Shown here one piece after another: positions 8,291 through 10,419 of a stretch of 64,000 nucleotides of DNA (positions within the stretch are counted from its first letter, which is position 1; each line of letters starts with the position of its first letter). The position numbers were made by a program, and so were the translations under genes. Source of the DNA: an uncultured Gammaproteobacteria bacterium (GTDB lineage Bacteria > Patescibacteriota > Patescibacteriia > UBA11705 > DATKZF01). The DNA lies in NCBI GenBank assembly GCA_964411255.1, contig CAYPKD010000002.1, positions 34,100 through 98,099 on the forward strand, written 5' to 3'. The notes under the pieces were generated by a model, which was given only the letters and a program-made list of their open reading frames with translations, did no database searches and had not been told where the DNA came from.

Positions 8291-8291
8291 T

Positions 8292-8328
8292 CGTTACGAA
8301 GTTATAATGTTACTAAGTTACGAGGTTA
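8292..8328. repeat. left inverted repeat flanking four-helix-bundle gene
   Basis: cgttacgaagttataatgttactaagttacgaggttaa roughly reverse-complementary to 8726-8762. Confidence 0.45.
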
Positions 8329-8337
8329 AAAGATTAT

Positions 8338-8727
8338 ATGAAAATTACAAAATTAGAGGAATTAGATGCTTGGCAAGAAGCAAGAAAATTATGTGAGGGT
8401 ATTTATCAATTAGTTAAACAATTACCAAGTTTTGAGGAATATAATATAAAGAAGCATATGCGAGAAAGCGCAAGAGGAGTTGCAGCAAATATCGCTGAAG
8501 GATTTGGGAGATATTTTTATAAAGAGAATTTAAGGTTTTATGGTATTGCACGCGGATGCCTAAATGAGGTAAAAAGTGATTTGTATGTCTGTTTTGATGC
8601 AGAATTTATCGATCAAGAAAAGCTGGATGAACATTTGGAGAAAATTAATAAAACAGAAGCTCTTTTAAATGGGCTTGTTGGTAGTGTCCTTAGCAGATTA
8701 AACGACCCGAATATAAAGTCAAAATAA
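8338..8727 (+). CDS. four-helix-bundle protein (23S rRNA intervening-sequence protein family)
   Basis: LDAWQEARKLCEGIYQLV...RESARGVAANIAEGFGRYFYKENLRFYGIARGCLNEVKSDLY, hallmark of TIGR02436-type proteins. Confidence 0.85.
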   Translation: MKITKLEELDAWQEARKLCEGIYQLVKQLPSFEEYNIKKHMRESARGVAANIAEGFGRYFYKENLRFYGIARGCLNEVKSDLYVCFDAEFIDQEKLDEHLEKINKTEALLNGLVGSVLSRLNDPNIKSK

Positions 8728-8762
8728 CGTCGTAACTTTTTAACGTTATAACGTCTTAACCT
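8726..8762. repeat. right inverted repeat flanking four-helix-bundle gene
   Basis: aacgtcgtaactttttaacgttataacgtcttaacc; related orphan copies near 41775 and 50347. Confidence 0.45.
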
Positions 8763-8769
8763 TAATCAA

Positions 8770-10419
8770 ATGACCGCCTTATCCAAAATTAAAAAAATTC
8801 TAAACGCCAAGACAAGCTCAATCGTCTCTGGCGCAGCCATTATAAGTCTGGCTTCTTTAGCCAGTCGGTTTTTGGGTGTGATCAGAGATAGGGTATTGGC
8901 CAGTGAATTCGGCGCCGGCGCTGAGCTGGATATGTATTATGCTGCATTTCGAGTGCCTGATTTAATTTATAATTTGGTTATCCTTGGCGCATTGTCTGCC
9001 GGATTTATTCCTGTTTTTACATCTTTACTAAAAAAATATGATAAGGAAGGCTATAAGGAAAATAAGCAAGCCTGGGATTTGGTAAATAATGTCTTAAATA
9101 CGGTTTTAATATTTTTAACCATTGTTTGTGCCTTTTTATTTATAATTACACCATGGCTGATGAAATACATTGCTCCAGGATTTGAAGGCGAACAGCTTCG
9201 TATAACTACCAATTTAACCCGAATAATGTTTTTAAGCCCGATCTTTTTAGGTATTAGCGGAATATTTGGAGGAGTTTTGCAATCTTTTAAAAGATTTTTA
9301 ATGTTTTCATTTGCGCCGATCATGTATAATATTGGAATAATTTTTGGAGCAGTATTTTTAATTGATTATATAAATATTTATGGTTTGGCAATTGGCGTTA
9401 TTATCGGGGCGTTTTTGCATATGATGATTCAATTGCCAGTGGCTATTCGGTTAGGATTTAGATATCGTCCGGTTTTCCAGCTTTGGAATAAAGATATTAG
9501 AAAAATCGGCAGGATGATGCTGCCACGAACCATGGGATTGGCTACAATGCAATTAAATTTAATTGTGGTTACGGTATTGGGATCAAGCCTGACTGCTGGT
9601 TCAATTGCTGTATATAACTTTGCCACTAACTTGCAGAGTTTTCCTTTAGGATTGTTTGGCATCTCATTTGCCTTGGCTGCATTTCCAGCAATGTCATTGT
9701 CATTTGCTAAAAGAGATTTAACTGATTTTAAAAAGCATTTTGAAGACACTTTAAGACAAATTTTGTTTTTTATAATACCTTTTACTTTAATTTTTATTAT
9801 ACTTAGAATGCAGATTGTAAGAGTGGTTTTAGGTTCTGGCCAGTTCAGCTGGGAAGATACGATTTTAACCGCCAATACTTTGGGAATATTTTCATTAAGC
9901 TTGTTTGCTCAGTCCTTGATCCCTCTGGTTGCTAGAGCATTTTATTCAATGCAAAACACTTTAATACCATTCTTAATGAGTTTAATATCTACAATTGTAA
10001 ATATTGTTTTAAGTTTGATTTTTGTAAAGTATTGGAGCGTTTTAGGTTTAGCTGCTGCTTTTACAATTTCCAATGTTTTAAATATTGCTTTATTAATGTT
10101 TGCTTTAAGAAAGAAAGTGGGAAGACTTGAAGTGCCTAGGATTTTAAAAACATTGGGTAAAATTTCTGTTGCTGGCGTCGCAATGGCAGTTGTGATGCAG
10201 TTGGCAAAATATCCAATGGCAATGCTGGTCGATATGGAAAAGTTCTGGGGAATATTCCTACAGGGCTTGGTTGCCGGACTTTTAGGTATTGGAGTATTTA
10301 TTTTAATTGCTCATTTATTAAAAGTTGAAGAGCTGCAAAGATTGAAACAAGGATTGGCAAAGAGAATTTTTAGAAAAGCTTCTTTGGCTAAGGAACCGAT
10401 CAGGCAAGCAGGGCAGTAG
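8770..10419 (+). CDS. murJ: lipid II flippase MurJ/MviN
   Basis: Polytopic membrane protein; N-term SIVSGAAIISLASLASRFLGVIRDRVLASEFGAG and overall MviN-like pattern. Confidence 0.8.
   Translation: MTALSKIKKILNAKTSSIVSGAAIISLASLASRFLGVIRDRVLASEFGAGAELDMYYAAFRVPDLIYNLVILGALSAGFIPVFTSLLKKYDKEGYKENKQAWDLVNNVLNTVLIFLTIVCAFLFIITPWLMKYIAPGFEGEQLRITTNLTRIMFLSPIFLGISGIFGGVLQSFKRFLMFSFAPIMYNIGIIFGAVFLIDYINIYGLAIGVIIGAFLHMMIQLPVAIRLGFRYRPVFQLWNKDIRKIGRMMLPRTMGLATMQLNLIVVTVLGSSLTAGSIAVYNFATNLQSFPLGLFGISFALAAFPAMSLSFAKRDLTDFKKHFEDTLRQILFFIIPFTLIFIILRMQIVRVVLGSGQFSWEDTILTANTLGIFSLSLFAQSLIPLVARAFYSMQNTLIPFLMSLISTIVNIVLSLIFVKYWSVLGLAAAFTISNVLNIALLMFALRKKVGRLEVPRILKTLGKISVAGVAMAVVMQLAKYPMAMLVDMEKFWGIFLQGLVAGLLGIGVFILIAHLLKVEELQRLKQGLAKRIFRKASLAKEPIRQAGQ

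Follow-up and report, generated by a model that had tools for sequence, protein, structure and literature searches.

Intervening sequences (IVSs) of bacterial 23S rRNA that bear open reading frames (ORFs) were described about 30 years ago, and the S23p/IVS family of these ORFs is still called functionally uncharacterised (PMC11270868; PMC4990558). In the helix-45 IVS of Coxiella burnetii, the one described best, tandem GACAGAT heptamers stand upstream of an S23p ORF, a terminal stem of 28 bp is formed, and RNase III cuts at the first repeat; excision of IVSs from precursor RNA by this enzyme has been shown in Coxiella, Salmonella and Leptospira (PMC4990558). The rRNA insertion sequences of the candidate phyla radiation (CPR) carry 23S_rRNA_IVP ORFs too, alongside homing endonucleases (PMC11270868). 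In the DGR accessory variability determinant Avd, five protomers grip one RNA stem-loop and contact one flipped-out base after another through identical residues (bioRxiv 10.1101/2023.10.23.563531). Intergenic heptamers have been surveyed separately, with TAACTGA in Beggiatoaceae and cyanobacteria (PMC4679880) and units such as GGGAATC in Xanthomonas and Nostoc (PMC4692102), and both surveys place them directly 5' of start codons. Intervening-sequence, S23 or four-helix-bundle genes did not turn up in a term search of the two papers, and the literature covered, mostly outside subscription journals, holds no link between the PF05635 family and flanking tandem arrays apart from Coxiella.

The stretch of DNA analysed here (the window; 64,000 nt) comes from a Patescibacteria-like genome, the relatives of its MurJ protein being named Patescibacteria, Falkowbacteria and Kuenenbacteria, and contains three PF05635 genes, each bracketed by short repeats. 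The components of the three cassettes are:

8293..8328, forward strand: 5' arm of cassette 1, about 4.5 units of period 8, each a GTTAC core with a 3-nt spacer (TRF, pair scan, MFE fold)
8338..8727, forward strand: cargo of cassette 1, four-helix-bundle protein of 129 aa (PF05635/TIGR02436), with an orthologue at the same site in locus L097
8725..8760, forward strand: 3' arm of cassette 1, period 8, TAAC core plus spacer, about 4.5 units
37101..37183, forward strand: 5' arm of cassette 2, heptamers GGTAATG/AGTAAAG, about 12 units
37198..37569, forward strand: cargo of cassette 2, four-helix-bundle protein of 123 aa (PF05635)
37573..37606, forward strand: 3' arm of cassette 2, heptamers ATTACYC, about 5 units, ending 9 nt before the ATG of the speE-like gene
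39136..39165, forward strand: 5' arm of cassette 3, about 3.8 copies of the octamer ATAGTTGT, beginning within the stop codon of the speE-like gene
39207..39608, forward strand: cargo of cassette 3, 133-aa four-helix-bundle protein (PF05635) with 60% identity to that of cassette 1
39609..39640, forward strand: 3' arm of cassette 3, eroded to one or two degenerate reverse-complement units that overlap the ATG of rnhA

A preliminary description of the window had assigned all three genes to the four-helix-bundle family of the 23S IVSs, and the assignment holds: ORFs 8338, 37198 and 39207 match PF05635 (23S_rRNA_IVP) with E values of 4.5e-30, 4.2e-37 and 8.1e-29 and with 104.5, 127 and 100.4 bits against a curated cut-off of 33.8, covering model positions 1-106, and TIGR02436 (four-helix-bundle protein) with 94, 121 and 89 bits against a cut-off of 24. 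They could not be classed as Avd proteins, scoring 22 bits with NF033474 (cut-off 80) and 17.6 and 17.2 bits with PF22296 (cut-off 40); no reverse transcriptase was found among the immediate neighbours scanned, the RVT_3 match at 39637 being RNase H (PF00075). The closest solved structure for the cassette 2 protein is PDB 2GSC (XCC0516; E 4.6e-16), followed at E 0.0076 by PDB 2RLD, both as sequence matches only. PADLOC gave zero defence-system matches for the four-helix-bundle proteins, which carry no recombinase, transposase or known nuclease motif, and two of the three are acidic (pI 5.5 and 6.2). With dN/dS values of 0.10-0.18, the lowest for the cassette 2 gene against its orthologue in L090, the four-helix-bundle gene is, judged by these ratios, functional and under purifying selection. 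As had been described, each gene stands alone amid housekeeping genes, between ackA and murJ, recJ and a speE-like gene, and the speE-like gene and rnhA, respectively, with cargo and both neighbours on one strand. Because the flanking genes of all three cassettes are protein-coding, none of them occupies 23S rRNA helix 9, 25 or 45; an Rfam scan of the window found no rRNA.

Each arm is a degenerate tandem array of a locus-specific 7-8-nt unit, with the 5' and 3' arrays of a cassette being reverse complements of each other. The imperfect inverted repeats of the preliminary description are thus real as complementary flanks of cassettes 1 and 2, but the arms are inverted tandem arrays and not simple repeats. 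In cassette 1, where TRF reports GTTACGAA x4.5 on the 5' side and TAACGTnn x4.5 on the 3' side, the 5' arm begins 2 nt past the ackA stop codon, the 3' arm overlaps the stop codon of the ORF and has its last base 9 nt ahead of the murJ ATG, and 8293-8328 is 83% complementary to 8725-8760 over 36 nt. The arrays of cassette 2 (GGTAAAG/GGTAATG x11.9 and ATTACTC x4.9 by TRF), whose first units double as the end of the recJ coding sequence, stop codon included, are 91% complementary over 32 nt (37123-37154 vs 37574-37605), including the 18-nt perfect match reported before (GTAATGGGTAATGAGTAA at 37137-37154 vs 37574-37591). For cassette 3, the pair 39134-39157 vs 39617-39640 comprises only 24 nt at 75% complementarity.

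When flank-to-flank duplex energies were compared with those of shuffled flanks, cassettes 1 and 2 stood well apart (-42.4 vs -24.5 +/- 4.2 and -53.3 vs -29.6 +/- 3.7 kcal/mol), while cassette 3, at -21.8 vs -24.2 +/- 3.9 kcal/mol, fell within the shuffled range, so that its complementarity is not above chance. MFE folds of the whole cassette RNAs contain terminal stems of 34 bp (cassette 1) and 32 bp (cassette 2) and a weak one of 24 bp (cassette 3). Careful alignment therefore finds complementary flanks, with a strong match for the first two copies and a marginal one for the third, and the energies bear out the earlier remark that the repeats are inverted around two of the three copies. The three cassettes carry three different units, indicating that they are not recent copies of each other, and the arrays of cassette 2 are identical in four other samples, indicating that they are not hypervariable at strain level.

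The same anatomy recurs across the family. We fetched 80 homologous loci from many phyla and scored 74 IVP genes against 150 neighbouring genes as controls; an inverted-repeat score of at least 12 was reached by 65% of the IVP genes and 1.3% of the neighbours (p = 1e-23). In 43 of 45 loci the two arms agree in period, which is most often 7 and next most often 8. Of 49 inverted array pairs that are adjacent and leave room for a gene between them, 47 hold an IVP ORF, and 11 pairs in the survey are gene-less hairpins. The arrays have a median length of 4.4 units, or about 32 nt. On the sense strand the 5' arm is purine-rich, with a purine fraction above 0.6 in 30 of 54 arms and below 0.4 in one. 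The upstream stop codon lies within the 5' array or at most 12 nt before its start in 29 of 40 loci, and the next possible start codon follows the 3' array at a median distance of 7 nt. The two neighbours share the orientation of the cassette in 48 loci and both oppose it in 4, approximately the bias of any ordinary gene. No rRNA was found around the IVP genes in any of 40 loci scanned, and no Rfam family, two tRNAs aside, in the window or 40 related loci. Three simple accounts of the repeats were tried and dropped: the period is no clade marker, since period 8 loci are scattered over the protein tree with only local clustering; all-frame stops hardly account for the non-triplet periods, as 23 of 54 arrays have stops in three frames and 16 in none, a slight enrichment at most; and a copy number of about five cannot be taken as a pentamer signature, the median of 4.4 being too near the TRF detection floor.

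These figures bear on the notion that there is no functional unit at all, the arrays being a general slippage-prone feature of intergenic spacers in which small genes merely happen to sit. Many arrays in the window do lie away from any cassette (35322, 51744, 57001 and others), often singly and partnerless, and the published surveys place intergenic heptamers directly 5' of start codons (PMC4679880; PMC4692102). However, the inverted complementarity is specific to IVP flanks (65% vs 1.3% of neighbours), the period is equal on both arms (43 of 45 loci), the purine-rich arm is consistently the 5' one, and units are kept across a dS of about 1.5. This notion is already disfavoured, and we consider it highly improbable.

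We favour instead, with a probability of roughly 0.55, the interpretation that the cassettes are IVS-type stem-loop elements, kin to the ORF-bearing 23S IVSs, in spacers between the protein genes of operons. Such an element consists of an S23p/IVP gene of about 120 aa between two arrays: on the 5' side about 4-12 degenerate units of 7 or 8 nt, rich in purines on the sense strand, and on the 3' side their reverse complement. It fills the whole spacer, from the upstream stop codon to a few bases before the next start, in the direction of its neighbours. It would be co-transcribed with the host genes, after which its two arrays would form a double-stranded RNA stem of about 25-40 bp; as each arm is made of repeats, several pairing registers are available, so that the stem would survive slippage. 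By analogy with the rRNA-borne members, the cassettes are probably cut by RNase III. Cleavage within the stem would free a small mRNA and part the neighbouring messages with little harm to the host. Gene and arrays are inherited jointly and persist for long under purifying selection, decay by internal deletion leaves gene-less hairpins and orphan half-arrays, and at some sites the cassette is replaced by, or becomes nested with, other hairpin arrays.

Several observations speak against a stem-loop: the lengths of the 5' and 3' arms are uncorrelated (rho = -0.05), cassette 3 lacks a significant stem, and only loss and replacement are seen directly. Selection on the sense RNA should make its duplex the more stable one, yet the energies on the sense and antisense strands are equal (-47.5 vs -47.1 kcal/mol, p = 0.65), with no strand asymmetry, so that complementary arms might serve in DNA as readily as in RNA. 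The stem mismatches, of which 44 are G-U-compatible on sense RNA and 24 on antisense, give a weak hint of a role at the RNA level.

Beyond the three cassettes, the window and the surveyed loci contain related arrays with another cargo or with none:

12681..12839, no strand assigned: gene-less hairpin of inverted period-10 arrays, GAAGAGGGCA vs GCCTTCTTAT
17881..18362, reverse strand: second cargo type, PD-(D/E)XK 'GxxExxY' gene at 17908-18315 (PF13366)
31531..31585, forward strand: orphan purine-rich period-10 array of the unit family of the 12689 hairpin
41775..41812, forward strand: weak orphan of about two cassette 1-type units, TAACGTCA TAACTTCT, followed by CTTTTTAA repeats
46294..46319, forward strand: orphan half-site with the cassette 2 3'-arm unit, TTACTCA x3.7, just 5' of the ATG at 46328
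50349..50377, forward strand: orphan half-site with the cassette 1 3'-arm unit TAACGTCT, just 5' of the ATG at 50387
4540-4635 of L081, and loci L013, L015, L027, L049 and L079: gene-less inverted arrays outside the window (array-pair scan)

The gene-less hairpin of the window, with arrays at 12689-12748 and 12806-12834 (TRF) that the pair scan places 71 nt apart, folds into a 36-bp stem of -42 kcal/mol, and units of the 31531-31585 array recur at recJ/speE in L082. One window ORF is probably over-called across a hairpin. Orphan half-sites had been proposed at three intergenic positions. Two of them stand: the cassette 2 unit pattern has 15 matches in the window against 0.15 expected, all within cassette 2 or 46294-46318, and the cassette 1 pattern has 7 against 0.07, including 50349-50368. 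At 41775-41790, with about two units, the 1-mismatch pattern of the cassette 1 unit failed, and a half-site of cassette 1 type is no more than plausible there. As partnerless arrays are common in the window, arrays may also have a role that is free of the stem.

The gene at 17908, which had been taken for a relative of the IVP genes, is PF13366 (PDDEXK_3, E 1.4e-39). The PD-(D/E)XK fold differs from a four-helix bundle, so that this gene is no homologue of the IVP genes; on the family match, it is best described as a second, unrelated cargo in a similar frame. It is bracketed by a short inverted repeat (17890-17900 vs 18352-18362) plus two TAATCAGCG units, and clear inverted arrays surround the GxxExxY gene in two of six relatives checked. 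PADLOC returned only weak Cas4-like matches for the PD-(D/E)XK protein.

Among relatives, gene and arrays are co-inherited, with turnover at the same intergenic sites. Despite a dS of about 1.5, units of the GNGTAAN/ATTACCC family are kept both in L090, which holds the cassette 2 orthologue at the corresponding site, and in L089, where a gene of 70% identity stands in another context; L090 also has an extra palindrome within its 3' arm. Window cassette 1 and L097 have the GTTAC core in common and differ in their spacers. In L081, where the SpeE-like protein is 92% identical, cassette 2 has been lost, leaving four 5' units and one inverted unit, and the cassette 3 site is taken by a gene-less hairpin with different units; compared with the outgroup L090, the polarised event is a loss. 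Between ackA and murJ, L100 has no array, and L099 has a nested gene-less hairpin in which outer cassette 1-type units surround inner TACAAGAT units, the latter also surrounding an unrelated PD-(D/E)XK gene in L099. The sites are therefore variable in L081, L099 and L100. No target-site duplication is visible at the filled/empty pair of window and L081, and no fresh gain of a gene cassette was seen among the relatives compared. Of the mobility that had been suggested for the cassettes, loss, replacement and nesting can thus be seen in relatives, but no new insertion of a gene cassette, and vertical persistence is long.

Such turnover could also be that of a mobile hairpin or palindrome element at the DNA level, comparable to REPIN/RAYT, IS200/IS605, MITE or homing systems, with the arrays as recombination ends or homology arms. 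Gene-bearing copies would then be autonomous and gene-less hairpins non-autonomous, the RNA stem a by-product, and new copies would enter at the apex of an existing hairpin or via array homology. Gene-less hairpins and half-sites of one unit at several loci of a single genome would fit, as would the nesting in L099, the palindrome in the 3' arm of L090, the different units at the same site in strains with 92%-identical SpeE-like proteins, the strand-symmetric folding energy, the nuclease fold of one cargo (PD-(D/E)XK) and the IVP ORFs beside homing endonucleases in CPR rRNA insertions (PMC11270868). The unit CAGAATT, common to L051, L066 and L070, accompanies related genes in different phyla, which points the same way. 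Yet the four-helix-bundle protein offers neither a recombinase, transposase or known nuclease motif nor a PADLOC match, neither fresh insertion nor target-site duplication is seen, and the polarised cases are losses (L081 vs outgroup L090). One-site persistence over a dS of about 1.5, and three window cassettes whose units differ too much for recent mutual copies, likewise argue against it, and we regard this scheme as unlikely.

The shape of the protein raises a further alternative, in which the arrays are reiterated binding sites for the flanked ring protein or another trans factor, one 7-8-nt unit per protomer, in an autoregulatory or RNA-/DNA-handling module where arm complementarity is secondary. 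TRAP, for instance, wraps tandem GAG triplets. PDB 2GSC was deposited with five chains and is described as a homopentameric toroid (PMC4990558), and the five protomers of Avd on one RNA stem-loop and the median array of 4.4 units, about 32 nt, would accord with such a ring. Within arrays, variation clusters at 2-3 unit positions in 45 of 59 cases (p = 5e-4), as with the GTTAC core of the window and L097, and this pattern of conserved core and variable spacer resembles a reiterated binding motif more than a pure stem. Protein distance and unit distance are correlated (Spearman 0.24, permutation p < 0.0005), and orphan arrays with cassette 1 and 2 units occur at other loci. Core-plus-spacer variation, however, could be mimicked by duplication of multi-unit blocks, for which TRF periods of 14, 16 and 21 were seen; the peak at 4-5 copies is near the TRF detection floor; simple co-inheritance would also produce the correlation; and two of the three window proteins are acidic, unlike the basic Avd. 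In L099, moreover, the TACAAGAT unit occurs with an unrelated gene and without any gene, and is thus not tied to the four-helix-bundle protein. That the arrays are protomer-wise binding sites, or the cassette such a module, therefore seems improbable to us.

Whether as IVS-type stem-loops or otherwise, the stem-plus-gene design around PF05635 in ordinary operon spacers of many phyla makes of an rRNA curiosity a general element open to study in cultivable bacteria. Complementarity between the arms is kept although the units vary in sequence, and the design comes with gene-less derivatives and a second cargo. This gives a handle on the nature of the 30-year-old "selfish" IVS elements and possibly an origin for the unexplained intergenic heptamer arrays of cyanobacteria, Beggiatoaceae and Xanthomonas; for annotation, it matters that the arrays overlap host-gene stop codons. 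One may go further and suppose, tentatively and with more doubt than confidence, that inverted short-tandem-repeat arrays form a widespread, unrecognised class of bacterial elements with interchangeable small cargos (the S23p/IVP pentamer or the GxxExxY PD-(D/E)XK protein), of which the 23S IVSs would be the rRNA-borne minority; it would spawn gene-less hairpins and half-arrays in operon spacers, and the ring-shaped IVP would read one unit per protomer to control the processing or propagation of its own cassette. If true, this class would span Patescibacteria to Bacteroidota, Acidobacteriota and Proteobacteria.

How do the window cassettes relate to described systems? The Correia/NEMIS elements of Neisseria are MITEs cut by RNase III, and in REPIN/RAYT systems a gene-bearing form flanked by inverted copies exists beside many gene-less forms. 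With both, the cassettes have in common short inverted-repeat hairpins in intergenic spacers, for which double-stranded RNA transcripts are expected, but their arms are 7-8-nt arrays varying by locus and genome instead of one conserved terminal repeat, and their cargo, in contrast to REPIN/RAYT-type systems, has no known transposase or recombinase fold. Within the 64 kb of this genome and the homologous loci covered, gene-less arrays share units with other loci, and no transposase-like cargo for them was found among the cargo and neighbour proteins scanned. The published heptamers resemble the orphan arrays of the window in being short arrays of 7-nt repeats, nearly all of them intergenic and mostly in one orientation, that end a few bases ahead of a start codon, but they are essentially direct repeats, with one inverted set among 170, in a Beggiatoa genome (PMC4679880; PMC4692102). 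Avd, a distant homologue, shares the pentameric four-helix-bundle barrel; it is basic, whereas two of the three window proteins are acidic.

The closest known systems are the ORF-bearing 23S IVSs of Leptospira, Coxiella, Xanthomonas and Brucella, with the same S23p/PF05635 family, a sense ORF in a loop closed by an inverted-repeat stem, and a sporadic distribution among relatives. In contrast to these, the window cassettes lie amid protein-coding genes and not in an rRNA helix, their arrays are longer, flank the gene on either side and have a period of 7 or 8, and gene-less hairpins and a second cargo family accompany them. RNase III cleavage, shown for the rRNA IVSs, would apply to the window cassettes by analogy. 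The Coxiella ORF is decaying, whereas the proteins of the present cassettes are under purifying selection. The Coxiella IVS likewise has purine-rich tandem heptamers directly 5' of the start codon, its GACAGAT unit (2-3 copies, polymorphic in number) resembles the units AGACAGA and GAAGACA of L014 and L063, and its layout of heptamers, S23p gene and stem agrees with the cassette folds, so that the likeness of a hairpin with a gene in its loop to the rRNA IVSs, pointed out in the preliminary description, is well founded.

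The three open reading frames named in the preliminary description are all present on the + strand, and their assignment to the four-helix-bundle family holds: they match PF05635, the IVP or S23p family (E 4.5e-30, 4.2e-37 and 8.1e-29), and also TIGR02436, with XCC0516 of Xanthomonas (PDB 2GSC) as the nearest solved structure (E 4.6e-16). Domain identification of the neighbours showed that each stands alone between co-directional housekeeping genes, and TRF showed every arm to consist of short, degenerate tandem repeats.

The three cassettes of the window, with terminal stems from minimum-free-energy folds
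8338-8727, + strand: copy 1, between acetate kinase and MurJ; 5' arm of GTTACGAA-type octamers (x4.5), 3' arm of TAACGTnn octamers (x4.5); terminal stem 34 bp, -34 kcal/mol
37198-37569, + strand: copy 2, between RecJ and a spermidine-synthase-like membrane protein; 5' arm of GGTAATG/AGTAAAG heptamers (x12), 3' arm of ATTACYC heptamers (x5); terminal stem 32 bp, -44 kcal/mol
39207-39608, + strand: copy 3, between the spermidine-synthase-like membrane protein and RNase HI; 5' arm of ATAGTTGT octamers (x3.8), 3' arm eroded to one or two reverse-complement units; terminal stem 24 bp, -14 kcal/mol

Each of the three cassettes has a unit sequence of its own, with its two arrays reverse-complementary to each other. 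Inverted flanking repeats, noted around two of the three copies in the preliminary description, are clear for copy 1 (36 nt at 83%) and copy 2 (32 nt at 91%), whose flank duplex energies lie well below those of shuffled controls, but marginal for copy 3 (24 nt at 75%), where complementarity in the duplex-energy comparison was no better than in shuffles. Terminal stems form in the folds of the whole cassette transcripts of all three copies. The cassette occupies the intergenic spacer entirely: recJ takes its final codons, stop included, from the 5' array of copy 2, and in copies 1 and 2 the next ATG follows 9 nt after the end of the 3' array.

Homologues were sampled at 80 loci, scanned with one genome per species and spanning Patescibacteria, Bacteroidota, Acidobacteriota, Planctomycetota, Omnitrophota, Chloroflexota, Verrucomicrobiota, Proteobacteria and other phyla. 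Almost all carry locus-specific, mutually reverse-complementary tandem arrays within 100 nt on either side of the ORF, with 5'/3' unit pairs such as GTAGGTA/CTACCTA, TGGTGAC/GTCACCA and CAGAATT/AATTCTG; the period is 7 in most loci, less often 8, and identical on both arms in 43 of 45. An inverted-repeat score of at least 12 was reached by 65% of 74 IVP genes versus 1.3% of 150 neighbours at those loci (Mann-Whitney p = 1e-23). Of 54 5' arms read on the sense strand, 30 are rich in purines and one in pyrimidines; the upstream stop codon falls inside the 5' array or at most 12 nt before it (29 of 40 loci), and the next possible start codon lies a median of 7 nt past the 3' array. When all fetched DNA was searched without bias for inverted array pairs, their spacing was bimodal: of 49 adjacent pairs separated by about the length of a gene (331-520 nt), 47 enclose an IVP ORF, extra flank paralogues included, and another 11 pairs form hairpins without a gene, with loops of 9-80 nt. 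An Rfam scan of 40 loci placed none of them in rRNA, so that the 'classical' location is the exception among the sampled loci. Protein distance correlates with unit distance over 53 heptamer loci (Spearman 0.24, permutation p < 0.0005), and related genes in different phyla can share identical units. The CAGAATT heptamer flanks IVP genes of 61-74% mutual identity in Bacteroidota, Acidobacteriota and Ignavibacteriales (loci L051, L066 and L070), suggesting either the transfer of whole cassettes between phyla or a conserved unit preference of this protein clade.

Comparison of the same sites in relatives for presence or absence revealed that cassette content differs at recJ/speE, speE/rnhA and ackA/murJ. 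At recJ/speE, a relative with a 63% identical SpeE-like protein (L090) carries an orthologous IVP gene (76% identical, dN/dS 0.10, dS 1.5) and the unit family of copy 2. The sister of the window (L081, 92% identical) has no gene there and only 34 nt left, in which four units of the 5' type and a single inverted one form a mini-hairpin, AGTAAT/ATTACT; because the outgroup L090 carries the cassette, this state represents a loss with a footprint. A third relative (L082, 63%) holds two inverted period-10 arrays, built of another unit and with no gene between them. At speE/rnhA, the place of cassette 3 is taken in L081 by a hairpin that lacks a gene and consists of unrelated CCCGAATG units, and L082 has nothing at this site. 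At ackA/murJ, the cassette has an ortholog with the GTTAY core kept in L097 (MurJ 79% identical), and L100 (MurJ 73%) has only a small unrelated hairpin. In L099 (MurJ 73%) the site is occupied by a 105-nt gene-less nested hairpin (2396-2500), the outer units of which are of the cassette-1 type (GTTACGAGAT ... ATCTCGTAAC) and the inner units TACAAGAT, as around the PD-(D/E)XK gene of the same contig. A gene 70% identical to copy 2 occurs in a wholly different neighbourhood in a further locus, L089, with the copy-2 unit family in long arrays. Gene and arrays travel together, persist for long and decay through deletions within the cassette. Some sites carry other hairpin arrays, in place of the cassette or nested with it, and no newly gained, gene-bearing cassette was found among the relatives compared. 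The 3' arm of the cassette-2 ortholog in L090 is interrupted (1690-1806) by a perfect GC-rich palindrome, TGCCTGCCGGCAGGCAGG, which is absent from the window and may have inserted into the arm secondarily.

The GxxExxY gene of the window had been regarded as related to the IVP genes; this did not hold, as it encodes an unrelated fold (PF13366, PDDEXK_3). Flank types among its homologues are mixed.

Flanks of GxxExxY genes
17908-18315, - strand, window: inverted repeat and two TAATCAGCG units
Bacteroides finegoldii: inverted tandem arrays, CACAGAGG versus CCTCTGTG
Bernardetia: inverted tandem arrays similar to the Bacteroides finegoldii type
164-760, L099, relative of the window organism (MurJ 73% identical), PDDEXK_3 gene: TACAAGAT versus ATCTTGTA arrays
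Treponema: plain inverted repeat
300-900, Fusobacteria plasmid pZRK30-1 (L096): direct repeats of ~50 nt, AATCRGTGAAAAT...CAGATTTAATCCGTGTACCTAT, not inverted

The upstream side of the L099 gene is a complete small hairpin by itself. Given the direct repeats of the plasmid copy, the inverted-array frame is not universal in the GxxExxY family, the flanks of which were only sampled and are clear in 2 of 6 plasmid-borne relatives. Since genes of this unrelated fold are also so bracketed, the frame houses at least two unrelated cargos. This bears on a ring-wrapping model, in which IVP would bind the repeat units; it is a live rival because the homologous DGR protein Avd holds an RNA stem-loop with all five protomers. 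We consider it rather unlikely, as in L099 one unit, TACAAGAT, also surrounds an unrelated cargo, and two of the three IVP proteins of the window are acidic.

Arrays also occur in the window without a gene; of the proposed orphan half-sites, two are statistically solid and one is weak.

Gene-less arrays of the window
12681-12839: gene-less hairpin of period-10 arrays, 36-bp stem, -42 kcal/mol
31531: orphan array, unit family as in the 12681-12839 hairpin
46294-46318 and 50349-50368: orphan half-sites, of the copy-2 and copy-1 unit types respectively, solid
41775: orphan half-site, weak
35322-35349, 46265-46293, 51744-51806 and 57001-57056: further degenerate arrays of period 7-8

The mechanical ORF of a PNP_UDP_1 phosphorylase (11703-12794, - strand, 363 aa) crosses the 5' arm of the hairpin; its homologues in relatives have only 300-304 aa, so its true start is probably near 12615, and the hairpin is probably intergenic, between divergent genes. 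The period 7-8 arrays immediately precede the start codons of ordinary genes; the recJ ATG, for example, follows 1 nt after the end of CTGAATC (x3.3). They have no inverted partner nearby and are like the TAACTGA-type intergenic heptamers of Beggiatoaceae and cyanobacteria. The reverse-complementary units TATACGAAT (47551-47588) and TATTCGTAAT (50946-50971), 3.3 kb apart with four genes between, may be the separated arms of a single ancient element or may have no connection. Separately, tandem ORFs of 228, 210 and 213 aa at 5206-7175 (the first at 5206-5892) look like a local gene-family expansion, judged by sequence; the two translations compared, of 5896-6528 and 6534-7175, have a near-identical N-terminal region, ..QSLESQL.MARPR..EVKRVPLTPEEKEFLGEIMDKAVAAEKAGEL...

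To our knowledge, the experimentally studied members are rRNA-borne IVSs only. In the helix-45 IVS of Coxiella burnetii, an AG-rich stretch and then two or three GACAGAT heptamers in tandem, strain-variable in copy number, precede the S23p start codon; the terminal stem has 28 bp, and RNase III cleaves at the first repeat (PMC4990558). As this is the architecture found here, we read the window elements as IVS-type stem-loop cassettes in the mRNA spacers of operons, with a probability of roughly 0.55. The earlier interpretation as IVS-like cassettes is supported in part, namely by the hairpin with a gene inside, as in Coxiella; the gain of a new cassette was not caught. Co-transcribed arms would form 25-40 bp of double-stranded RNA, a natural substrate for RNase III. 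G-U-compatible stem mismatches are in weak excess on the sense strand (44 versus 24 antisense), and sense and antisense duplex energies show no asymmetry (p = 0.65). In 45 of 59 arrays (p = 5e-4), the variation clusters at 2-3 positions of the unit, which fits a reiterated recognition motif and can also be explained by the duplication of multi-unit blocks. Evidence on the level of action, RNA or DNA, is thin; a hairpin transposon or homing element operating on DNA is a less likely alternative, with no candidate enzyme in the four-helix-bundle cassettes.

The first observation is confirmed and extended, and the result generalises a long-unexplained element and opens an experimental approach. 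The IVP family is still termed functionally uncharacterised (PMC11270868), and a full-text literature search, incomplete in coverage so that an earlier mention is possible, yielded no description of family-wide bracketing, of gene-less derivatives or of a frame common with GxxExxY genes. Identity with Avd was rejected, as scores fall far short of the cut-offs and the immediate neighbours of the cassettes include no reverse transcriptase. Hairpins without a gene are similar to MITE or REPIN-type repeats, though devoid of a conserved terminal sequence and of a known transposase, and the orphan arrays are similar to the intergenic heptamers described for Beggiatoaceae, cyanobacteria and Xanthomonas in PMC4679880 and PMC4692102, where a term search found no mention of the IVP gene family. 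Apart from the defining location in rRNA, where none of the cassettes tested was found, all testable features of ORF-bearing IVSs are common to the cassettes of the window.
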